Of a DNA stretch of 64,000 nucleotides, positions 2,862-62,604 are shown piece by piece. How positions within the stretch are numbered: position 1 is the stretch's first letter; each line of letters starts with the position of its first letter. The notes beneath the pieces were generated by a model. It had not been told where the DNA came from. It did not search any database and was given only the letters and a program-made list of their open reading frames with translations. The stretch lies in the NCBI RefSeq assembly GCF_030384885.1, contig NZ_CP128615.1; one strand, written 5' to 3'. The DNA comes from Escherichia coli. GTDB taxonomy: Bacteria; Pseudomonadota; Gammaproteobacteria; Enterobacterales; Enterobacteriaceae. The translations under genes were made by a program, and so were the position numbers.

Positions 2862-3092
2862 ATGCGCACAGTTTCGATATTTAAAAACGGCAATAACCGC
2901 GCCATCCGTCTGCCCCGGGACCTGGATTTTGATGGCGTCAGCGAGCTGGAGATCGTCCGGGAAGGGGACAGCATCATTCTGCGTCCCGTCCGGCCGACCT
3001 GGGGCTCGTTCGCGCAGCTGGACAGGGCCGATCCGGACTTTATGGCGGAGCGTGAGGATGTGGTCAGCGATGAAGGACGCTTTGAGCCATGA
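2862..3092 (+). CDS. vagC: VagC/VapB-type antitoxin (AbrB/SpoVT fold)
   Basis: 76-aa ORF MRTVSIFKNGNNRAIRLPRDL...; 4-bp overlap with downstream PIN toxin. Confidence 0.9.
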   Translation: MRTVSIFKNGNNRAIRLPRDLDFDGVSELEIVREGDSIILRPVRPTWGSFAQLDRADPDFMAEREDVVSDEGRFEP

Positions 3093-3505
3093 AGAAAACC
3101 TGGATGCTCGACACCAACATCTGCTCGTTCATCATGCGCGAGCAGCCGGCAGCGGTGCTGAAGCGCCTGGAGCAGGCGGTGCTGCGCGGTGATCGCATTG
3201 TGGTCTCGGCCGTGACGTATGCCGAGATGCGCTTCGGCGCCACCGGCCCGAAGGCCTCGCCGCGCCATATTCAGCTGGTCGACGCGTTCTGCGCGCGCCT
3301 CGATGCCGTCCTGCCCTGGGACCGCGCCGCGGTGGACGCCACGACGGACATCCGGGTGGCGCTGCGCCTAGCCGGGACGCCGATCGGCCCGAATGACACG
3401 GCCATTGCCGGGCACGCCATCGCGGCGGGCGCCATCCTGGTGACGAACAATGTGAGAGAGTTTGCGCGGGTCCCGGGCCTGGTGCTGGAAGACTGGGTGA
3501 AATAA
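3089..3505 (+). CDS. vagD: VagD/VapC PIN-domain toxin
   Basis: 138-aa ORF MKKTWMLDTNICSFIM... with PIN acidic residues; overlaps vagC stop. Confidence 0.9.
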   Translation: MKKTWMLDTNICSFIMREQPAAVLKRLEQAVLRGDRIVVSAVTYAEMRFGATGPKASPRHIQLVDAFCARLDAVLPWDRAAVDATTDIRVALRLAGTPIGPNDTAIAGHAIAAGAILVTNNVREFARVPGLVLEDWVK

Positions 3506-3547
3506 TCCCGTAATAATTTCCGTGACGGAGACGACAGACATGAATGG

Positions 3548-3608
3548 GCTTTGTTGAATAAATCGAACTTTTGCTGAGTTGAAGGATCAGATCACGCATC
3601 CTCCCGAC
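3548..3608 (+). mobile_element. IS903-like (IS5 family) terminal fragment including IR GGCTTTGTTGAATAAATC
   Basis: matches the first ~61 bp of the intact IS903-like copy at 23903; homology stops where the IS3-family element begins. Confidence 0.65.
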
Positions 3609-3708
3609 TGGATTTGCCCCTATATTTCCAGACACCTGTTATCACTTAATGGAGTGACCCCGAGCCCGTAGACAAATCTGCCCTATAGTTTGAGCATAGG
3701 AGGAGTCT

Positions 3709-3993
3709 ATGGGCACATCACGTTTTACCCCTGAATTTAAGGAAGAGGCCGTCCGCCAGATCACCGAGCGGGGCTATTCTATTGCTGAAGTATCTGAACG
3801 GCTCGGCGTGTCGGCGCACAGCCTATATAAATGGCTCCGGGCTGTTAAGCCTGACAACAGTGGACAGCAGGCACAGGATTTACTGGATGCCAGAACAGAA
3901 ATTCTCAGGCTGAAAGCACAGCTTAAACGCACTGAGGAAGAGCGGGATATTCTGAAAAAGGCAGCGCGGTACTTTGCAAGGGAGCCCGACTGA
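3709..3993 (+). CDS. IS3-family transposase OrfA (HTH)
   Basis: 94-aa ORF with HTH (YSIAEVSERLGVSAHSLYKW) and leucine-zipper-like C-terminus. Confidence 0.85.
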   Translation: MGTSRFTPEFKEEAVRQITERGYSIAEVSERLGVSAHSLYKWLRAVKPDNSGQQAQDLLDARTEILRLKAQLKRTEEERDILKKAARYFAREPD

Positions 3994-4567
3994 AGTATCG
4001 CTTTATCAACGATCACCGTGAAATCTGGTCGATCGTTACAATGTGTCGGGTCCTTAAGGTTGCCCGTGCCGGATTTTATGTCTGGCTCCATAACCCTGTA
4101 TCTGCCGGAGAAAAGGATAACCAGCGACTGCTGGAACTCATCCGCGACTCCTATACGCTGAGTGGTGGAGTTTACGGTTATCGCAGGGTTCATGGCGATC
4201 TTCGCGAAATTGGCGAAGTGTGCAGCAGAAACCGGGTTGCCAAAATCATGAGGAAAAACAGGATTCAGGCTATACATGGTTATAAAGTGCCACGCGGGAG
4301 CCGGGGACGACCGTCACTGATAGCGCCTAATCACGTGCGGCGTGAATTTACTGTAGTGAAGCCCAATCAGGTGTGGGTCACCGACATCACCTACATCCGC
4401 ACCTGGCAGGGCTGGCTGTACCTGGCAGTGGTTATCGATCTTTTTGCCCGTAATGTGGTGGGCTGGTCGATGAAGCCGACACTGTCGCGCGAGCTGGCAC
4501 TGGATGCGCTGCTGATGGCGGTCTGGCGACGTAAACCTGAAGAAAACGTCATTGTGCACAGCGATAG

Positions 4568-25112: not shown

Positions 25113-25376
25113 ATGAAGAAGCGTTTTTCCGACGAACAGATCATCAGTATTCTCCGCGAAGCCGAAGCTGGGGTACCCGCCCGTGAACTCTGCCGCAAGC
25201 ATGCCATTTCCGATGCCACGTTTTACACCTGGCGTAAGAAGTATGGCGGTATGGAGGTGCCTGAAGTTAAGCGCCTGAAGTCGCTTGAGGAAGAGAACGC
25301 CAGACTCAAGAAGCTGCTTGCCGAAGCCATGCTGGATAAAGAGGCGCTTCAGGTGGCTCTTGGGCGAAAGTACTGA
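25113..25376 (+). CDS. IS3-family transposase OrfA
   Basis: 87-aa ORF MKKRFSDEQIISILREAEAGVPARELCRKHAISDATFYTWRKKYGG... Confidence 0.85.
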   Translation: MKKRFSDEQIISILREAEAGVPARELCRKHAISDATFYTWRKKYGGMEVPEVKRLKSLEEENARLKKLLAEAMLDKEALQVALGRKY

Positions 25377-25399
25377 CGACAGACCAGAAGCGGGAAGCC

Positions 25400-25624
25400 G
25401 TGATGCTGATGTGTGATGCGACCGGTCTGTCGCAACGTCGTGCCTGCAGGCTTACAGGTTTGTCCCTGTCGACCTGCCGCTATGAGGCTCACCGTCCGGC
25501 TGCTGATGCGCATTTATCAGGGCGCATCACTGAGCTGGCACTGGAGCGCAGGCGTTTTGGCTACCGTCGTATTTGGCAATTGCTGCGCCGTGAAGGGCTT
25601 CATGTTAATCATAAGCGCGTGTAG
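25400..25624 (+). pseudogene. IS3-family transposase OrfB, N-terminal fragment only
   Basis: 74-aa ORF ending at the truncation point. Confidence 0.7.
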
Positions 25625-29043: not shown

Positions 29044-29081
29044 GGGGAGCCCGCAGAATTCGGAAAAAATCGTACGCTAAG
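29044..29081. repeat. Tn1721 internal 38-bp inverted repeat
   Basis: GGGGAGCCCGCAGAATTCGGAAAAAATCGTACGCTAAG, overlapping tnpA stop. Confidence 0.8.
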
Positions 29082-34643: not shown

Positions 34644-34681
34644 GCTTAGCGTACGATTTTTTCCGAATTCTGCGGTTCCCC
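34644..34681. repeat. Tn1721 terminal inverted repeat (mcp side)
   Basis: reverse complement of GGGGAACCGCAGAATTCGGAAAAAATCGTACGCTAAG. Confidence 0.8.
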
Positions 34682-34715
34682 CTTAATTTCAGTATCTGTT
34701 ATTACAGTTGGGTAT

Positions 34716-34790
34716 CGGTGATGCTGCCAACTTACTGATTTAGTGTATGATGGTGTTTTTGAGGTGCTCCAGTGGCTTCTGTTTCTATGG
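34716..34790 (+). mobile_element. IS1 terminal fragment (IR plus first ~75 bp)
   Basis: GGTGATGCTGCCAACTTACTGATTTAGTGTATGATGG...; joined directly to a Tn3-family IR. Confidence 0.8.
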
Positions 34791-34828
34791 GGTCAGTTTG
34801 GATATCGAAAATTATTGTACGTTAAGGT
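34791..34828. repeat. Tn3-family 38-bp terminal inverted repeat (unidentified transposon)
   Basis: GGGGTCAGTTTGGATATCGAAAATTATTGTACGTTAAG followed on minus strand by a tnpA 3' fragment. Confidence 0.7.
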
Positions 34829-35147
34829 CGTTTTTTGACCTTTCTACTTTAGCTGGCCTCAGCCGACGAAACTTACCGGAGGCCGGTATTCTGTTGTTTT
34901 TCCAGATGTAATCGCCTGTCAGATTGATATGCTCCCAGCCTAACGGCGACAAATGTGACAGCAGTTGCTCGTTGATCTTCACCCCTTTACGCTTCAGGGC
35001 ATCGACCGCTCTTTCCATATACACTGTATTCCACAGCGAGATAGTTGCTGTCAGCAGCGTCAGTCCACTGGCGCGGTAGCTCTGATTTTCCGGTTTACGA
35101 TCCCTGATTTCACCCAGACGGTGCAGGAATACCGCGCGCGCTAGAGA
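34812..35147 (-). pseudogene. Tn3-family transposase TnpA, C-terminal ~110 codons only
   Basis: ...[17 protein letters not shown]...[17 protein letters not shown]...; homology to TnpA ends near 35147. Confidence 0.75.
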
Positions 35148-35666
35148 GAGCTCCCATCGCTGCGCGACGGGCCCCAACCGGAGAACCAAGTTAGTTACAG
35201 CATTCAGATGAAAATTCATCATAAAACCGGCGCCGGTTTGCCAGCCAGGAGCCCCTCCCCACCACTGAAAAGCGCCGCCGCCCCCGGCCGAAGGCCGGGA
35301 GTAGTGTCGCTTTTAATGATGGGTGTTGTAACTACTCTTCGTCATCTCTGTGAGTAGTGTCGCGGTAAGTTCTGGGATACACGCTCGTAAGCGGCCCTAA
35401 CGGCCCGCTAACGCGGAGATACGCCCCGACTGCGGCTGTCGCCTTGCCGGGACCACTCCGACCGCGTACAGAGGCATCTGAGCCGTTTTTAGCGGGTATA
35501 GCTTTGCAGGGAAGGGGGTGGGTGAGGCAGAACCTGTCAAAACAGCAGCCGGCTGCGCCGGGCGACGGCGCCATTTACCCGCAGTACTCCATTCAACTTC
35601 AGCTGGCGCCTCCATGCCGCTGACGCGGCATTATCTATACTTTAAGTCTGGCCACTGGAGGTAACC

Positions 35667-35751: not shown

Positions 35752-35912
35752 GGCTTTGTTGAATAAATCAGATTTCGGGTAAGTCTCCCCCGTAGCGGGT
35801 TGTGTTTTCAGGCAATACGCACGCTTTCAGGCATACCTGCTTTCGTCATTTTGTTCAGCGCTCGTACCAGGGCCATAGCGGGGTCGTTTGCGGGAGGGGG
35901 CGGAATCCTACG

Positions 35913-38798
35913 CTAAGGCTTTGGCCAGCGATATTCTCCGGTGAGATTGATGTGTTCCCATCCGAGCGGCGAAACATGGGCCAAGAGATCGGGCGATAGC
36001 AGCTTTCCATCGCGTTTCTGGTTTGCAACGACCTCGCCGAGCTTCATGGTGTTCCAGAAGATGATGATGGCGGCGAGCAGATTCATGCCGGCGATGCGGT
36101 AATGCTGGCCTTCGGCGGAACGGTCGCGGATTTCACCGCGGCGGTGGAAGCTGATTGCCCGCTTCAGCGCATGATGAGCTTCGCCTTTGTTGAGCCCGAT
36201 CTGGGCACGCCGTTGGAGTTCGGCATCCAGAATCCAGTCGATCATGAACAGGGTGCGCTCGACGCGACCGACTTCCCGCAGGGCTGTCGCGAGCTCGTTC
36301 TGCCGCGGATAGGAGGCGAGTTTCCGCAGAATCTGGCTTGGCGCGACGGTCCCGGCAGCAATGGTGGCGGCGATGCGCAGGATGTCGGGCCAATTGCGCT
36401 CGATCATGGCTTGGTTGACCTTTCCGCCGATCAACGCTCGCAGGTGCGCCGGGGCGGCCGACGGATTGAACGCGTAGAGCCGTTTGGATGGCAGGTCGCG
36501 GATGCGCGGAGCGAACCGGTAGCCGAGAATGGCACATGCGGCAAAGACGTGATCGGTGAAGCCGCCCGTGTCGGTGAACTGCTCGCGGATATGGCGTCCA
36601 GCATCGTTCATCAGCAGGCCATCGAGGATGTAAGGCGCTTCGCTTGCCGTTGCAGGAATCACCTGGGTTGCGAACGGCGCATATTGGTCGGAGACGTGGC
36701 TATAGGCTTTCAGGCCCGGGGTATTGCCATATTTCGCGTTGACCAGGTTCATGGCCTCACCTTGCTCTGTAGCGACGAAGAACTGTCCGTCGCTCGAAGC
36801 CGACGTGCCCATGCCCCAGAACCGGGCCATGGGTAACGCTGCCTGTGCCTCGACCACCATGGCCAGCGCCCGGTCATAGGCTTCGCCCTCGACATGCCAC
36901 CGTCCAATGCGGATCAATTCCCAGAAGGTGTGGGTGTTTGTCGCATCCGCCATTTTGCGCAAGCCGAGGTTGATCCCTTCCGCCAAGATAACGTTCATTA
37001 GCCCGATCCGGTCAGCGCAGGGTGCTCCTGTGCGCAGATGGGTGAACGCTTCGGTGAAGCCGGTCGCCGCATCCACCTCCAGCAGGAGATCGGTGATGCG
37101 CGTGGGCGGGATCTGCTTGTAGAGATCGAGCACCAGATCTTCGGCGCCTGTCGGCGCGGCGGCTTCGAGTTTCTCGATATGCAGAACGCCGTTTTCAATC
37201 GACCCGCCCGGGATCGTGCCTGCGCGAGCGGCACGGCCAAGCTCGCGCAACCGCATGTCGAGGCGAGCTTGCCGGTCTGCCAGCCATTCCTCCGGCCGCA
37301 ATGGCACAGCGAGACGACCGCCTTCCGCGATGGATTGTGCCGGAACGAGTGCGTGTTTCAGATCGCCATAGCGCCGGGACCTAGTAAGCCAGACATCTCC
37401 GGAGCGGAACGCATCGCGCAGATGGAACAGCACCGCGATCTCCCATAGGCGAGCGTCGCCAGCCCTCTGGGCCCGAAGGTGGCGATGCCATTTCGAGCTG
37501 GGCCGCAAGAAGCTGGTCATCGCGGCATCGTTCAAACCGGTACGAAGGGCCGTCACCGCTTCCAGAAGCGGCAGTGCAACGGGCGCAGCTCGCAGATCGA
37601 GCAGGCGCAACATGCGTGGAGCGTATCGGCGGAAGCGGTGATAACCGTCGAGCACATGATTGAGCGGATCGTCGGCCATGGTGGCGGTCAGCCTGGTTGC
37701 CATTGCAACAAGGGTTTTTAAGCCGTCCCACCCTGACCCACTCGCGATGACATCGCCCAGCGGCTGGCCATCATCCTGTGCATCGACCAGGGCGCCCCCG
37801 ATCTCGGCGAAGGATTTCAGGGTGTCACGCACCACCCCCGCTTCGTCTGCGACCTTTGCATGGCAAATACGCTCCGAAGCACGGTAGAGACGGCCGACGA
37901 TCCGGTCGTGGGTTTCGACCACTGCGTCGGCCAACATCGCCTGCCATTCCGAGACGCAAACAGCCAAGATCGCAAGCCGCCTGTCCTCCGGGAGATCGCG
38001 CATGCCGTCGGCATAATACCGTTCACCCTGCCTGCGCAGACGAGTCACCCGATGGGCAGGAACGCCGGCAAGCAGATCCTCGGGGAGATCGATGCGTTGC
38101 AGATATTCGAGCCGGTCGAGCAGCCGGTTGGCCGACGAAGAGTTCGAGCCAGGCTCGAACTGGCGCAGCCACACAAAACGGGTCACCCGATCATCAGCCG
38201 TCTCCTCGAGCAATGCCAGCAACTGTTCTCGGATCGACATAGGCAGCCGACTGGCGATCCTCGTCTCGATGCGTCGCTCGGCATCGACGAGAGCCGCGGC
38301 ACAAAGCCGCTCGATCGTGGATGTCGCGGGAAGGACAGTGCGGGTGCGTCGGCACTCGGCTACGAAGCGACGGGCGATATCCTCGTTCGACACCGCCATC
38401 TCGGCTTCTCGGAACAACCATTCCTTCAGCTCGCTCGCACCACGTCCGGAGAAGGTGCGGAAGCCGTAGAGCCCCCGTAACTCGGCAAGATGCTCGTGCC
38501 GTGTTTCCTCGCGGGCAGCATAGTCTACGAGATCGTCGGCACCCAGGCCAAGCTGCGCTCCGATAAATTCGATGACCTCTGCAGGGATCAGTTCGCCTGG
38601 AGCCAGCACCCGGCCGGGATAGCGCAGGACACACAATTGCAGGGCGAAGCCGAACCTGTTGTGAGCGCGCCGACGCAGCCTGATATGCCCAAGGTCTTCA
38701 TCACTCAGCGTATAGTGCTTGAGCAAATCCGTCTGTGAAGTCGGCAAGCGCAACAGCGCGTCTTTCTGCCGATCGGTTAGAGTGACGCGACGCGGCAT
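35913..38798 (-). CDS. tnpA: Tn3-family transposase TnpA (Tn5393)
   Basis: 961-aa ORF; C-terminal ...[17 protein letters not shown]. Confidence 0.9.
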   Translation of the reverse strand: MPRRVTLTDRQKDALLRLPTSQTDLLKHYTLSDEDLGHIRLRRRAHNRFGFALQLCVLRYPGRVLAPGELIPAEVIEFIGAQLGLGADDLVDYAAREETRHEHLAELRGLYGFRTFSGRGASELKEWLFREAEMAVSNEDIARRFVAECRRTRTVLPATSTIERLCAAALVDAERRIETRIASRLPMSIREQLLALLEETADDRVTRFVWLRQFEPGSNSSSANRLLDRLEYLQRIDLPEDLLAGVPAHRVTRLRRQGERYYADGMRDLPEDRRLAILAVCVSEWQAMLADAVVETHDRIVGRLYRASERICHAKVADEAGVVRDTLKSFAEIGGALVDAQDDGQPLGDVIASGSGWDGLKTLVAMATRLTATMADDPLNHVLDGYHRFRRYAPRMLRLLDLRAAPVALPLLEAVTALRTGLNDAAMTSFLRPSSKWHRHLRAQRAGDARLWEIAVLFHLRDAFRSGDVWLTRSRRYGDLKHALVPAQSIAEGGRLAVPLRPEEWLADRQARLDMRLRELGRAARAGTIPGGSIENGVLHIEKLEAAAPTGAEDLVLDLYKQIPPTRITDLLLEVDAATGFTEAFTHLRTGAPCADRIGLMNVILAEGINLGLRKMADATNTHTFWELIRIGRWHVEGEAYDRALAMVVEAQAALPMARFWGMGTSASSDGQFFVATEQGEAMNLVNAKYGNTPGLKAYSHVSDQYAPFATQVIPATASEAPYILDGLLMNDAGRHIREQFTDTGGFTDHVFAACAILGYRFAPRIRDLPSKRLYAFNPSAAPAHLRALIGGKVNQAMIERNWPDILRIAATIAAGTVAPSQILRKLASYPRQNELATALREVGRVERTLFMIDWILDAELQRRAQIGLNKGEAHHALKRAISFHRRGEIRDRSAEGQHYRIAGMNLLAAIIIFWNTMKLGEVVANQKRDGKLLSPDLLAHVSPLGWEHINLTGEYRWPKP

Positions 38799-39878: not shown

Positions 39879-40732
39879 GATTTCAGTTTATTACGGATTA
39901 CCGTGGCTCTCTCTCACGTTCACGCATATGTCGTTTGATGGGCGTAACAGATCGTGGTTTACGTGCATGGAAACGCCGTCCTCCATCACTGCGCCAGCGT
40001 CGTGATCTTATACTTCTAGCGCATATACGTGAGCAGCATCGGTTGTGTTTGGGGAGCTATGGTAGGCCGCGTATGACAGAAGAGTTGAAAGCGCTGGGCC
40101 TGCAGGTTGGGCAGCGTCGGGTTGGACGTTTGATGCGCCAGAATAACATTACAGTTGTTCGAACGCGTAAATTCAAACGGACAACGGATAGTCATCATAC
40201 CTTCAACATTGCACCGAACCTATTAAAACAAGACTTTAGCGCAAGCGCACCCAACCAGAAATGGGCAGGCGATATCACTTATGTTTGGACCAGAGAAGGA
40301 TGGGTCTATCTTGCTGTTATCCTTGACCTGTATTCCCGTCGCGTGATTGGCTGGGCAACAGGTGATCGATTAAAGCAGGATCTTGCATTAAGGGCACTGA
40401 ATATGGCGTTGGCTTTACGCAAACCACCACCGGGTTGTATTCAACACACAGACCGTGGGAGCCAATATTGCGCTCATGAATATCAAAAGCTACTGCTCAA
40501 ACATCAATTGCTGCCGTCCATGAGCGGGAAAGGCAATTGTTTTGATAACTCCGCAGTAGAAAGCTTCTTTAAATCATTAAAGGCTGAGTTGATTTGGCGC
40601 AGACACTGGCAAACAAGGCGAGATATTGAGATTGCAATCTTCGAATATATAAATGGCTTTTATAATCCACGCCGAAGACATTCAACACTCGGCTGGAAAT
40701 CGCCGGTGGCATTTGAGAAAAAAGCCGCTTAA
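39875..40732 (+). CDS. IS1133 transposase OrfB (DDE/rve)
   Basis: 285-aa ORF; 4-bp overlap with orfA. Confidence 0.8.
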   Translation: MRFQFITDYRGSLSRSRICRLMGVTDRGLRAWKRRPPSLRQRRDLILLAHIREQHRLCLGSYGRPRMTEELKALGLQVGQRRVGRLMRQNNITVVRTRKFKRTTDSHHTFNIAPNLLKQDFSASAPNQKWAGDITYVWTREGWVYLAVILDLYSRRVIGWATGDRLKQDLALRALNMALALRKPPPGCIQHTDRGSQYCAHEYQKLLLKHQLLPSMSGKGNCFDNSAVESFFKSLKAELIWRRHWQTRRDIEIAIFEYINGFYNPRRRHSTLGWKSPVAFEKKAA

Positions 40733-42478: not shown

Positions 42479-42584
42479 ATATCAAGCGACTTCTCCTATC
42501 CCCTGGGAACACATCAATCTTACCGGAGAATATCGTTGGCCAAAGCCTTAGCGTAGGATTTCGCCCTCTCCCGCAAACGACCCC

Positions 42585-47789: not shown

Positions 47790-49700
47790 TCTGGATTATC
47801 GTCACGCTGTTAAATATGTCGCGGTAGGGATACCCGTTACCGGATACCCCCCGCACAGATCCCGGCGTGCGCGATTTACGCACCGGGCTCCTGCCTCGGG
47901 TGTCTGGCGGTGAACCGCTCCACAGGCCATGGATGAAGAACCCGAACCCTTGGTAGCCATGCGGCTGCCAGTTTGTTTGCTTTCGTCCAGGTCGTATCAT
48001 CCTTCTGGCTCCTGCGCCTGAGCGCCCGGCGCCAGAGGTTTGTTACGTGTGTCCTGAACTTCTGCATGGTGGGGAAGTTGCCCGGTACCGAGTGATAGTT
48101 CAGGTATCCCTGAACCACTCTCCTGAGCCATTTTCCCTGTTCGGGGATTGAGTAATGCCAGCGCCTTCGCAGACCGTCTTTGATGGCTTTCAGAGTTGCC
48201 GTCATCCGATCCCGGCGGGTCTTTCGTATCAGCATGAACCTGCCGTTGCGATCTTTCCCGCTGATGTGCGTGAACCCGAGGAAGTTGAACGTTTCTGGTT
48301 TGCCTTTTCCCCTGATGGCACGGTTTTCGGCAGCGAAGCGGCCGAACTCCATCAGACGGGTTTTCTCCGGGTGAACCGTGAGTCCGAACTCCCTCAGTCT
48401 GCGCTGCATGGCTATACGGAAGCGCCGGGCATCGTATCGTTTGTCGAACCCGATGACGATGTCATCGGCGTATCTGACCATTACCACATTGCCTGTGGCA
48501 TAGCGACGTCGCCACTGATGCGCCCACAGATCGAAGACGTAGTGGAGGTATATGTTTGCCAGCAGCGGTGAGATGACCGCACCCTGTGGGGTGCCTTCCT
48601 CCGTTGCTCGCCATTGACCCTCCTCCAACGTCCCGGCTGTGAGCCACTTACGTATGAGCCTGATTACGCTCCGGTCGCCGATCCGATGCTCTGTGAACCT
48701 GATCAGCCATTCGTGGCTCACCCTGTCGAAGAACTGACTGATGTCGGCATCCAGTACCCAGTTTACGTTAGTGCGTACCAGCCCTGTGGCCAGTGCGTCC
48801 AGTGCATCGTGCTGGCTTCGCCCGGGTCTGAACCCGTATGAGAACCCCATAAAGTCGTTTTCATAGACTGCGTTCAGGATTTTCACCAGCGCATACTGGA
48901 CGATCTTGTCCTCCAGCGAGGCGATGCCGAGCGGGCGTTGTTTTCCATCCGCTTTTGGGATGTAGTGACGCCTGCCGGGCTGCGCCCTGTAGCTGCCCTA
49001 ATGTAGCCTCCGGTGCAGATCTGTTATGTTGTTCTTCATGTTTCCGGCGTAGTCCATCCACCTGATGCCATCCACTCCGGCGGCCGCTTTCCTGCTCAGG
49101 GAGAGGAATGCGGCTTCCAGTGCTTCGACTGTCAGCAGGTGGAACAATGCTGTAAACCGTTCTTTCTTCCGCTGCTTCGCAGCTTCCCGCACGCGTGACA
49201 GCCTCTGTGACATGCTTTCCCGGCTCTGTGTCCGGCGCATGTGTGGCTGTTCCGCGTTCCCCTTGGCCCCGCTCCTTCGCTCCACTGACTCCGCTCCTTT
49301 CGGGTTGTTCGCCTGCTTCGCCGCTACTATGAGCGAGTCCGACTTCTCCTCTCCGTACATCACCGGCTATGACTCCTCGTCTTCCCGGTGCGGGCCGTCT
49401 CCGACACTGGCAGATGGTCAGAGGGGAGATCTCCCGGTTCCCGCGTAGAGATCGTATTGACATGCCAGGGTCTCAGACCCCGCCGGGTCCATGTGGCACT
49501 CGCAGTATCGCACCCTATGATGTTGCCTTCCGTTAACAGTACAACGTCGGCACCCGGTAATTTAATATACATTTCGTGGCTCAATGGCTGGCCTGTCAAC
49601 ACCCCTGTCAACGCTTCGCCCCATACCTCGCGGTATGCAACGCATGACTCGGGGACCTTGTGGATTGCTGGTCCTTCAATGGTCGGGGACTTTCACCCCT
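47790..49700 (-). mobile_element. bacterial group II intron (boundaries approximate)
   Basis: intron-encoded RT/maturase ORF; domain V-like hairpin in the reverse complement of 47845-47880; 5' boundary not pinned. Confidence 0.6.
47876..49363 (-). pseudogene. group II intron reverse transcriptase/maturase, interrupted by one in-frame TAG
   Basis: two same-frame ORFs (48998-49363 and 47876-48886) separated by a TAG at 48998-49000; RT motifs ...GVDGIRWMDY..., ...FSYGFRPGRSQHDAL..., ...YADDIVIG... Confidence 0.75.
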
Positions 49701-59026: not shown

Positions 59027-59257
59027 ATGCGCACAGTTTCGATATTTAAAAACGGCAATAACCGCGCCATCCGTCTGCCCCGGGACCTGGATTTTGACGG
59101 CGTCAGCGAGCTGGAGATCGTCCGGGAAGGGGACAGCATCATTCTGCGTCCCGTCCGGCCGACCTGGGGCTCGTTCGCGCAGCTGGACAGGGCCGATCCG
59201 GACTTTATGGCGGAGCGTGAGGATGTGGTCAGCGATGAAGGACGCTTTGAGCCATGA
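59027..59257 (+). CDS. vagC: VagC/VapB-type antitoxin, second copy
   Basis: 76-aa protein identical to the first copy; two synonymous DNA differences noted. Confidence 0.9.
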   Translation: MRTVSIFKNGNNRAIRLPRDLDFDGVSELEIVREGDSIILRPVRPTWGSFAQLDRADPDFMAEREDVVSDEGRFEP

Positions 59258-59349
59258 AGAAAACCTGGATGCTCGACACTAACATCTGCTCGTTCATCAT
59301 GCGCGAGCAGCCGGCAGCGGTGCTGAAGCGCCTGGAGCAGGCGGTGCTG
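59254..59349 (+). pseudogene. vagD: vagD (PIN toxin), first ~32 codons only, truncated by IS21-family element
   Basis: MKKTWMLDTNICSFIMREQPAAVLKRLEQAVL then IS terminus TGTCAACGCC... Confidence 0.85.
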
Positions 59350-59407
59350 TCAACGCCACGATGTTTGACCGTTATTTGCCATTTTCATGCCCGCTAAGAT
59401 ACTTTCG

Positions 59408-60191
<784 letters not shown>

Positions 60192-60195
<4 letters not shown>

Positions 60196-60833
60196 AACAG
60201 CTCCTCATAGGCACTCAGTGGTCGATGTTCCACCTGACTGACCTGCTGCCAGAGCGGGGCGTGATGCTCCGGCACTGTCTGCCAGCCAGACGATGCCGGA
60301 CAGAGGCGATGTGAGGCCACCAGTTTCTCATTACTGTAGATCCGCAACTCGTCATCCAGCGATATTCGTATCGATACTGGCTGACCACACAGCGCTTCGG
60401 GAACGCTGTAACGATTACCACCAACCTCGATATAGCTGTCCCAGGACACATGGCGGATGTCGAAGTAACTGGTATCGAAGTCCGTATCCGGTAACGGCTG
60501 CAGATGTTCCTGCTCCAGCGCGAAGCGCTGTTCCGGCGTTTCTTTGAACTGGCGAAGCTCCCGTTTGTCAGCCACATCGGCTATCCATTGCTCCAGTTGT
60601 TGATTAACATGAGTGAAGCTGTCGAACCTGCGGTACCGGACGAAGAAGTTCTCCTTGAGGTATTTCACCATCCGCTCAACCTTACCTTTTGTTCTGGCCC
60701 TGCGTGGACGGCATGCCCGTGGCAGGAAGTTATAGTGGTCGGCCAGCAACAGGAATCCGGAGTTGAACACGACTTTCCCGTTGTTATTCTTCAGCACCGC
60801 AGCCTTCTGGTTATCAACCAGCACCGTTTTCAC
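60192..60833 (-). pseudogene. istA: IS21-family IstA transposase, C-terminal 213 codons only
   Basis: ORF ...[23 protein letters not shown]...; overlaps istB start. Confidence 0.75.
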
Positions 60834-61020
60834 ACAACCACCGAATTTGATCCCTGAAAACTGTCAGCGCTGCGAGGACGAAGAAAGTATTACGGCTAAA
60901 GCCGTAATACCTCCCCATCCAGCTTCAAGCTATGTAGAAACTTATGTGGGTAGAGCAGTCCCGACAGGGCAGTACCGCATTGACAGGCCGTCAGGGCCAC
61001 TTACGAGCTTGTATGACAAG

Positions 61021-61058
61021 GGGGGCCGTCTGGATATAGCGAATTATTGTACGGTAAG
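61021..61058. repeat. Tn3-family-like 38-bp inverted-repeat sequence, isolated
   Basis: GGGGGCCGTCTGGATATAGCGAATTATTGTACGGTAAG, about 80 percent identical to the IR at 34791-34828. Confidence 0.5.
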
Positions 61059-61394
61059 CCTTTTTTGAACAGCCTTACCTATTGCTATAGAGGGGAACTC
61101 CTACGTTATACGCCGCTTTCAGGGGATTCGACCTTAATGAGACAACTCAAATATGATCGACAACTTAAACGCGATAGTTGCTGATAAAATCAATCCATTA
61201 CGCGTTTCAATTGATTAAATAATGCACTTAATGTACAAAAATTCCCGATCTCAAAACTGAACCCTAAAGATACCAGGCATCTCCCCCAGGAAGCGCCCTC
61301 ATGCGTTTTCCTGTTCCGCCCCTGCCACCTACCTTCTGTTTCATACTTGTTGTATTATTGTTTTTGTTTTCAATCCCCAAGGAGACGTCGCTAT

Positions 61395-61562
61395 ATGACT
61401 GTGCGGGAGACAGAGGAAAACATTGAACAAATCTTCCCTGAGCTTTCGAACTTAATTGATATTATTAATAAATGGCTTTCCCATGGAAACATTGATCCTG
61501 AACTGGCACACTTCATCATTTATCTTCTTGATTACCTAACCACCACACACAAAAGCATATAA
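61395..61562 (+). CDS. small hypothetical protein (55 aa)
   Basis: MTVRETEENIEQIFPELSNLIDIINKWLSHGNIDPELAHFIIYLLDYL...; followed by a strong terminator; RBS weak. Confidence 0.35.
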   Translation: MTVRETEENIEQIFPELSNLIDIINKWLSHGNIDPELAHFIIYLLDYLTTTHKSI

Positions 61563-61677
61563 AAATTTTCCTTGCACATCCATTTTTTTGCGAATATTAT
61601 TATTCCTGCTGAATATGATTCAATATCGCACGCTACTCATCCATCCCAGGATAATGAGTACATAGGTTGAAGTTTCA

Positions 61678-61705
61678 ACACCCCCATTACGGGGGTGTTT
61701 TTTTT
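61678..61705 (+). terminator. rho-independent terminator
   Basis: ACACCCCCATTACGGGGGTGT followed by T8. Confidence 0.7.
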
Positions 61706-61823
61706 ACCAATAAACACAAATCACACCATCGCCATACTCTGTTTGCCAGACATCGATTGGTAAATATGCGTAACTCGCTATAATACAAAAAGAAAAATCA
61801 GAACCAGAAACCAGTTTCCAGAT

Positions 61824-61850
61824 AAAAAACACCCTCCCGAAGGAGGGGAC
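61824..61850 (-). terminator. rho-independent terminator (minus strand)
   Basis: reverse complement of CCCTCC-CGAA-GGAGGG hairpin followed by a T-run. Confidence 0.6.
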
Positions 61851-62180
61851 AGACACATTCATATTTCCCAAAACAGGAATTTTTATTTTTATGACGCATT
61901 AATGAAGTTACTTCATCTCCAGTAGATTAACTTCATTTAAAGTGGCGATCAATCATATTTATTACGACTCTAAACTATTACAACAACCACAATAAGATAT
62001 CACCTCAAATATAAAAGATAACTCTTACAAAAACGTTCCGAAAACAAAAAATACAGATAAACACCAATAAAAAACAGAAAACTCTTACACATTTAAAGAT
62101 GGTAAAATAATATAGAACTGTTAGTCTAATGGAGAAGGCGCATCTGATTCAGAGCAATCTATTGCGAAGAATCAGAGTAA

Positions 62181-62219
62181 CAGGGCCCCATGATATAATC
62201 ATGGGGCCCTGTTGCTTTT
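62181..62219. terminator. strong near-perfect hairpin, possibly a bidirectional terminator
   Basis: CAGGGCCCCATGA-TATAA-TCATGGGGCCCTG followed by TTGCTTTT. Confidence 0.6.
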
Positions 62220-62463
62220 ACAGATGTAAAAACGACCAATCATTTAACATCTGTTATCGGCACCGCCCCGGACGGGTTCGGCGCAAATATGGTATGGTAC
62301 CAGCCCGGCAATTCACCTGCCGTGCAATCTGACGAAGCAGTACCGGCGTATGCAGATATATCGTCCAGACATATCTGCCGCATTCAGGCGGTGAGTAAAG
62401 CCTTCTCTCTCAAAAGAGGAGCAACAGTTATCCACAGATTCTGGGGATAACTGCGAAAAGAAT

Positions 62464-62604
62464 ATGTGCCAGGAAAGTCGGCTCCCGGGAAAAAGACCGC
62501 TGGCGGCGCAGCTGCTGGATACGAAAGCTGAGCTGAAAGGATCCCGGGAGGACGTCCGTAAACTTCAGTCCCTGGCCCGTCATGACGGGAAGGTGAAAAA
62601 GTGA
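62464..62604 (+). CDS. small hypothetical protein (46 aa)
   Basis: MCQESRLPGKRPLAAQLLDTKAELKGSREDVRKLQSLARHDGKVKK; stop overlaps GTG start of the next ORF (GTGA); below the ORF-track cutoff. Confidence 0.3.
   Translation: MCQESRLPGKRPLAAQLLDTKAELKGSREDVRKLQSLARHDGKVKK

Follow-up and report, generated by a model that had tools for sequence, protein, structure and literature searches.

Introduction

Miniature Tn3-family elements (TIMEs) retain only the two 38-bp ends to which a transposase binds, together with a short core. They would move only when a cognate Tn3-family transposase acts in trans, and this movement would be replicative and would normally leave 5-bp target duplications. The described element closest to the locus analysed here is MITESen1, which was reportedly first named by Pong and Hall in 2021. 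MITESen1, a 256-bp TIME listed in ISfinder, was surveyed by Gomi and Yano (2026), who provide its reference sequence in their Table S2 and counted copies only at an identity and coverage of at least 95%; the F plasmid is not mentioned in that work (PMC13367494).

Here, we analysed a 64,000-nucleotide stretch of an Escherichia coli plasmid (hereafter the window), in which an earlier note, made from the sequence alone, had drawn attention to a 38-bp repeat. We conclude with considerable confidence that this repeat is one end of a 244-bp non-autonomous TIME of the MITESen1 family, which entered once in an ancestor, has been inherited vertically ever since and is now most likely inert.

Results

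The repeat has an inverted partner

The repeat, GGGGGCCGTCTGGATATAGCGAATTATTGTACGGTAAG, occupies positions 61021-61058 on the plus strand, runs from an outer GGGG to an inner TAAG and matches the left repeat of MITESen1 (IRL) at 34 of 38 positions. It is a Tn3-family terminal repeat, as the earlier note had proposed with the correct coordinates and sequence. The note had also called the repeat isolated, and this proved wrong: two independent methods, an ungapped scan of both strands and an inverted-repeat search, recovered a partner, GGGTTCAGTTTTGAGATCGGGAATTTTTGTACATTAAG, at 61227-61264 on the minus strand. Between 60900 and 61400, the inverted-repeat search returned a single pair, with arms of 38 nt that are 71% complementary and 168 nt between them. 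The right repeat is identical to the left one at 27 of 38 positions and to the MITESen1 right repeat (IRR) at 34 of 38. Both arms carry the inner TAAG. The left arm also has an unaltered outer GGGG, which is degraded to GGGT at the right terminus.

The two Tn3-type arms delimit an element of 244 bp (61021-61264, plus strand), within the range of 50-500 bp given for the class and lacking a transposase gene. It has no coding capacity: only mechanical open reading frames of at most 101 aa overlap it, none of which is annotated in the RefSeq, PLSDB and E. coli records examined, and no conserved gene underlies the repeat. The core of 168 bp (61059-61226, plus strand) is homologous to the MITESen1 core; in the element analysed here, a 10-bp deletion has removed one conserved GCGATA block. 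At 61188-61200 (plus strand), 26 bp inside the right repeat, the core contains a match to the IHF consensus, AATCAATCCATTA (WATCAANNNNTTR), which is one of only four such matches on both strands of the whole window. An AAATCAA block at this IHF-like site is common to eight of nine aligned family sequences, which vary just after the block. By analogy with gamma-delta and Tn3, IHF bound at the AATCAATCCATTA site may help the transposase to bind. A promoter-like site also lies inside the element, at 61128-61157.

A solitary repeat, left by a decayed transposon or belonging to a miniature element with its partner outside the window, would agree with the lack of a tnpA gene after the repeat and with a strict pattern search, which gives two same-strand copies only. 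This reading is refuted by the inverted partner 168 bp downstream and by the colinearity of the whole 244 bp with a known two-ended element, and we give it next to no credence. The miniature-element alternative offered in the earlier note was thus right as to kind, since the 244 bp align with MITESen1 from end to end, and mistaken in looking for the partner beyond the window.

A related repeat ends a truncated transposon in the same window

The earlier note had compared the repeat with a second one, GGGGTCAGTTTGGATATCGAAAATTATTGTACGTTAAG, which terminates a truncated autonomous Tn3-family transposon. Its description of the two as about 80% identical and equally oriented on the plus strand was accurate (31/38 or 81.6% in an ungapped scan), even though the second copy lies at 34789-34826 (plus strand) and not, two bases off, at 34791-34828. 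This likeness is beyond chance: the best unrelated ungapped matches within the window reach 21-22/38, and a degenerate pattern fitting both repeats occurs at exactly two sites, with 0.00 expected from 100 shuffles. For chance resemblance, or for a constraint imposed by coding sequence, nothing speaks beyond the shortness of a 38-bp motif; the zero expectation in shuffles, a blastn match of the element to MITESen1 with an E-value of 7.6e-50 and the absence of an annotated gene beneath it refute both, leaving them a negligible probability.

As had been noted, a tnpA remnant accompanies the 34.8-kb copy, namely a Tn3 transposase C-terminus of about 107 aa (ORF 34812-35222, minus strand; DDE_Tnp_Tn3 profile positions 310-389 of 389, E 1.8e-25), and no tnpA follows 61021-61058. 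Because they share one orientation and lie 26 kb apart, the repeats at 61021 and 34789 are not the two ends of one element, which the note had likewise recognised. A 26.5-kb composite formed by the 34789 repeat (plus strand) and the right repeat at 61227-61264 (minus strand) was also considered and is not supported: its flanks, TCTAT and TAAAG, form no duplication, and it does not occur independently.

The other Tn3-family transposons of the window have ends that match the repeat at 61021-61058 at only 21-22 of 38 positions. One of them, with repeats at 35880-35917 (plus strand) and 42547-42584 (minus strand; only 21/38), carries a tnpA gene at 35913-38798 (minus strand; 961 aa, DDE_Tnp_Tn3 E 1.4e-143). 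A further pair of 38-bp repeats, at 29044-29081 (plus strand) and 34645-34682 (minus strand), bounds about 5.6 kb and is presumably of the Tn1721 type. Some 70 bp (GGTGATGCTGCCAACTTACTGAT..., 34719-34788) end abruptly at the 34789 repeat; we take them to be the first ~70 bp of IS1. Elsewhere, the window contains a match to group II intron domain 1-4 (49468-49693, minus strand; 187 bits) and an IS1222-type ribosomal frameshift element (25343-25460, plus strand; 152 bits).

The element is a diverged member of the MITESen1 family

The 244 bp are 100% identical to positions 40438-40681 of the classical F plasmid (NC_002483), and we therefore refer to them as the F copy. In a global alignment with the MITESen1 reference, 198 of 258 columns are identical (76.7%), in the same orientation; the identity rises to 81.8% over ungapped columns, and the two are colinear across MITESen1 positions 1-256. 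Of the six IRL-specific states of MITESen1, the left repeat retains five (positions 15, 18, 21, 26 and 34), and the right repeat likewise keeps five of the six IRR-specific ones. Since these end-distinguishing positions are shared, the F copy and MITESen1 descend from one miniature ancestor and not from independent deletions. Judged by its sequence, 61021-61264 is a diverged MITESen1-family TIME with shared ancestry with MITESen1. At 76.7% identity and 244 bp, it falls outside MITESen1 as catalogued (at least 95% identity and coverage), which makes it a relative within the family and not MITESen1 itself, and which also places F-type copies outside the survey by Gomi and Yano.

Two other miniature elements were rejected as the identity of the locus. 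TIME244/MITEEc2 has the same length of 244 bp by coincidence, but its global identity of ~50% is at background level and blastn gave no match; TIME244 is absent from the window. IS101, with a global identity of ~49%, is at background level as well.

A distant blastn search of PLSDB with the 244 bp matched 2,333 records, with a query coverage of at least 80% in 1,382. Many full-length matches, at 70-77%, lie on unrelated plasmids of Enterobacter, Klebsiella, Serratia, Citrobacter and Salmonella; among the carriers are 4.5-kb Col plasmids and an mcr-4.3 plasmid. The ends of those copies, GGGGTCAGTTTGGATATAGAGAATTATTGTACGGTAAG and GGGGTCAGTTTGGAGATCGGAAATTTTTGTACGTTAAG, are well conserved, and the literature identifies the copies as MITESen1. 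Divergent members of 243-257 bp, 70-85% identical to MITESen1, were found in L013 (1501-1743), L014 (1500-1754) and L015 (1494-1750), on IncI1, IncHI2/IncN and IncF/X1 plasmids; all of them are below the catalogue thresholds. A Yersinia ruckeri plasmid (L017, 1501-1723) carries a partial, one-ended copy, likewise below these thresholds. The 257-bp member in L015 is flanked by a perfect 5-bp target duplication, TTGAA, and published cases show TAATA and TATAT (PMC13367494); together, these duplications support the mobility of the MITESen1 family itself. We also observed an IS110-family element at the same point of the repeat (after ...TTGTAC) in L012 (8859-8896), L016 (1808-3121) and L006 (4896-6328). 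An autonomous copy as well as a MITESen1 copy has this insertion, which resembles the targeting of Tn21-type repeats by IS4321/IS5075.

A likely parent transposon and a res-like core

The truncated transposon at 34789 points to an autonomous counterpart of the family. Its repeat matches both MITESen1 ends at 35 of 38 positions and both ends of the F copy at 31 of 38, and a repeat identical to GGGGTCAGTTTGGATATCGAAAATTATTGTACGTTAAG terminates a full-length tnpA gene in L011 (4337-7324). The remnant at 34812-35222 shares 96-97% identity with the termini of Tn3-family transposases annotated in the plasmid collection; the transposase match that we inspected (H173, 96.3%) is the end of the full-length tnpA in L011. 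In L012, a closely related tnpA (NF033527, 1,280 bits) is divergent from a serine-resolvase gene (3144-3785; Pfam Resolvase, E 5.6e-21), with 167 bp between tnpR and tnpA. An autonomous transposon with matching ends is therefore represented by full tnpA genes in L011 and L012 and by the truncated copy at 34789, and the 34789-type transposon is likely, from these repeat comparisons, to be the cognate type of the MITESen1 family. PGAP and PLSDB name it only 'Tn3 family transposase', a full-text literature search for the GGGGTCAGTTTGGATATCGAAAATTATTGTACGTTAAG-type repeat sequence gave no match, and in the window the cognate tnpA survives solely as the 107-aa remnant.

Where the tnpA and tnpR genes of a Tn3-type transposon are divergent, the region between them is the res site. 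Read inward from the repeat at the tnpA end, the MITESen1 core is colinear with the L012 intergenic region, with a Smith-Waterman (SW) score of 54 against 20 ± 3.3 for shuffles (maximum 38), and it scores 45 with that of L011 (shuffles 22 ± 3.4, maximum 37). The aligned spans are L012 3786-3952, L011 about 4180-4336 and MITESen1 positions about 40-170, and the MITESen1 core contains repeated GCGATA/TATCGC-like half-sites. The core of the F copy scores 32-35 against the res region, which is within the shuffle range (maxima 37-39). From these alignments we infer that the MITESen1 family consists of IR-res-IR derivatives, like TIME244 and IS101, an assignment of res that rests on homology to the intergenic regions of two uncharacterised transposons (L011 and L012). 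The family could have originated by deletion of tnpA on one side and of tnpR and the passenger genes on the other; if the core is the res site of the parent, the cognate serine resolvase could resolve cointegrates formed by such an IR-res-IR element. Gomi and Yano found no similarity of MITESen1 to the res sites of Tn3, Tn21 and Tn1721, and the cognate transposon was not among their comparisons (PMC13367494).

The flanks resemble ColE1-associated DNA

From 60844 rightwards, the window is F backbone (99.6% identical to NC_002483 39202-40858), between the pif genes and RepFIB. Left of 60844, the F sequence is displaced by truncated IS21-family istB and istA fragments (59408-60843; IstB_IS21 E 4e-37), a replacement found in this plasmid and 17 others; just upstream of these fragments, a MazE/VapB-type antitoxin ORF is followed by a 47-aa ORF without a Pfam match (59027-59397).

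Exactly at the right end of the element starts a 69-bp fragment of a ColE1-type origin (61265-61333, plus strand), antisense to about nt 378-446 of RNAII. The origin region of ~1,590 small Col-type plasmids matches this fragment at 85-87% identity; in L007 the homologue lies at 367-435 and Rfam RNAI at 709-812. The left flank (60865-61013, plus strand) is homologous to positions 2501-2693 of a Klebsiella plasmid, L008 (SW 106, shuffles 22 ± 3.3), where the distance of the segment is ~550 bp to an RNAII-like fragment of L008 itself and ~860 bp to rop, in an order permuted or opposite relative to F. A simple insertion into a ColE1 origin was rejected, given that the left flank scores 27 against the adjacent ColE1 sequence, with shuffles at 22 ± 3.4. 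A larger ColE1-derived block in F was rejected as well: the sequence at 61334-62600, which includes a small ORF and UptR, is essentially confined to F-like plasmids, as opposed to small Col plasmids. Clear likeness to ColE1 is limited to the 69 bp, apart from a weaker match of 64 bp (76.6%) at 62405-62468, 1.1 kb to the right of the fragment, to sequence immediately downstream of a ColE1 origin.

Directly outside the element, the flanks are ACAAG and TAAAG, which agree at 3 of 5 positions and form no 5-bp target duplication. Permuted flanks and a missing duplication would be expected from an element-mediated event involving a Col-type plasmid, either an adjacent deletion or a cointegration. 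An ancient event of this kind would explain that the right end is fused to an RNAII fragment, that the ColE1-associated flanks are permuted and that no target duplication is present. The fuller proposition, that the MITESen1 family is the IR-res-IR derivative of the unnamed 34789-type transposon and, in addition, that the F copy marks an ancient ColE1 cointegration or adjacent deletion in an ancestor of F, is one that we put forward tentatively and, taken as a whole, rather doubt. Adjacent deletion, recombination or decay would each be expected to leave no duplication, so its absence weakens the case for a simple insertion and not the assignment to the TIME class. It is also weak evidence of age, because several canonical MITESen1 copies likewise lack duplications, both in our alignment and according to the legend of Fig. 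S4 in the survey (PMC13367494).

The F copy occupies one fixed locus

PLSDB contains ~358 records with the F-type copy at an identity of at least 95%. We joined the two flanks and searched PLSDB with them in distant mode for an empty site. This flanks-only query gave ~361 matches at 95% identity or more, 349 of them with a query coverage of at least 80%. This search revealed no empty site, as all full-coverage matches listed were split in two with the element between the parts. Since the element is present in every full-coverage match listed, neither a pre-insertion site nor a target sequence can be defined. Among 5,426 complete E. coli genomes, the locus is found in 365 (~6.7%), and of the 367 E. 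coli records matched, 354 have the element along with 100 bp on either side. The E. coli matches include 16 chromosomal places, among them that of the laboratory F′ strain XL10-Gold. No second insertion site of the F-type copy was found in PLSDB or in the complete E. coli genomes.

In the L009 lineage, whose adjoining 1.3 kb are 92.5% identical, the left ~145 bp of the element are gone and the same right-end junction persists. Because both lineages keep this junction, it predates the split between F and L009. We propose that the element entered the ancestor of the backbone flanking F/RepFIB once, beside or together with the piece of ColE1-type origin, and that the F copy would have been transmitted vertically since then. 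A single locus in ~360 plasmids argues against recent mobility, and the element is an ordinary relic at one fixed site, inherited in the F backbone.

The F copy carries lesions and is probably inert

The terminal GGGG is held to be essential in Tn3-family elements. It is conserved among canonical members of the family and has become GGGT at the right terminus of the F copy. The 10-bp deletion in the core takes away part of ...TAAATGCGATAC..., a block conserved throughout the eight other aligned family sequences. A further deletion of 9 bp (GTCTGGATA) within the left repeat is found in 275 E. coli records, that is, in most of them (for example in L010 at about 2994-3001); the window and the classical F plasmid have the form without it. 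At family-invariant columns, the F copy is changed at 15 of 131 (11.5%), similar to the ~13% in two other divergent members, so that this measure of decay does not single it out. As its rate is no higher than theirs, much of the divergence of the F copy may predate the insertion.

Could the F copy nevertheless still be mobilised? With a cognate transposase it might then transpose, form cointegrates or pair with another end of the family and so move the DNA in between. The conservation of its repeats, each still at 34 of 38 positions of its MITESen1 counterpart and with the inner TAAG kept, speaks against inertness, the IHF-like site is retained, and TIME-bounded composite structures are documented for the MITESen1 family (PMC13367494). 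Set against this are the confinement to one locus in ~360 plasmids and 365 genomes, the broken GGGG of the right repeat, and a window that offers no full-length cognate tnpA and in which other Tn3-family ends reach only 21-22/38. We consider continued mobility improbable; the lesions and the single locus suggest that the F copy is probably inert.

Alternatively, the relic might have been co-opted, either to provide F-like plasmids with Tn3-type target immunity towards the cognate transposon or to supply regulatory signals to the downstream small ORF and the UptR small RNA. In Tn3-family elements, as established for Tn3 and gamma-delta, one end carried by the target replicon can be enough to make it immune; the element has long been retained in a successful backbone, and the promoter-like site at 61128-61157 lies inside it. 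However, most descendants carry the 9-bp deletion in the left repeat and the L009 lineage is without the left 145 bp, which suggests drift and not selection; moreover, an end of the cognate-type transposon sits on the same plasmid at 34789, and UptR has its own promoter-like site and terminator. Co-option is thus very unlikely, and an inert relic remains the reading that we prefer.

UptR itself (Rfam RF02568, 123 bits, full length) was detected at 61608-61699 (plus strand), ~350 bp to the right of the element, with the promoter-like site at 61573-61600 and the terminator at 61677-61699; the same feature is present in F (L001, 6765-6856). Among the papers searched, nothing relevant was found on UptR or on a Tn3-type MITE near RepFIB.

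Discussion

Our analysis reveals an unannotated miniature Tn3-family element in the classical F plasmid and in ~6.7% of complete E. coli genomes, one that is missed by surveys at identities of at least 95%. The F copy adds to the MITESen1 family a diverged member that had not been catalogued, with a modest value for annotation and for insight into the family's origin and res content. Given that both this copy and the variants of 243-257 bp at 70-85% escape such surveys, the MITESen1 family is older and more diverse than catalogued, with variants that range over IncI1, IncHI2, IncX, IncF and Col plasmids. MITESen1 elements bracket the resistance genes qnrS1, floR and qnrD1, and blaNDM-1 contexts have also been reported; a likely parent transposon and a res-like core lead to testable predictions on how such resistance structures are formed and resolved.

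Compared with known systems, the F copy is closest to MITESen1, with which it has in common its architecture, its orientation, the conserved core blocks and a plasmid habitat. It differs from MITESen1 in length (244 versus 256 bp, through deletions of 2, 10 and 2 bp), in the GGGT at one terminus, in the lack of a target duplication and in its single fixed locus. The unnamed autonomous transposon with GGGGTCAGTTTGGATATCGAAAATTATTGTACGTTAAG ends codes for a serine resolvase and a transposase of ~995 aa; the F copy encodes nothing. TIME244/MITEEc2 belongs to the same class and has the IR-res-IR layout that is proposed here for the family, but its ends and its res are of the Tn21 type (Gomi and Yano 2026). 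IS101, the 209-bp TIME of pSC101 that is mobilised by gamma-delta, is likewise a miniature Tn3-family element in a classical laboratory plasmid and carries a res-like sequence; unlike those of the F copy, its ends are of the Tn3/gamma-delta type.
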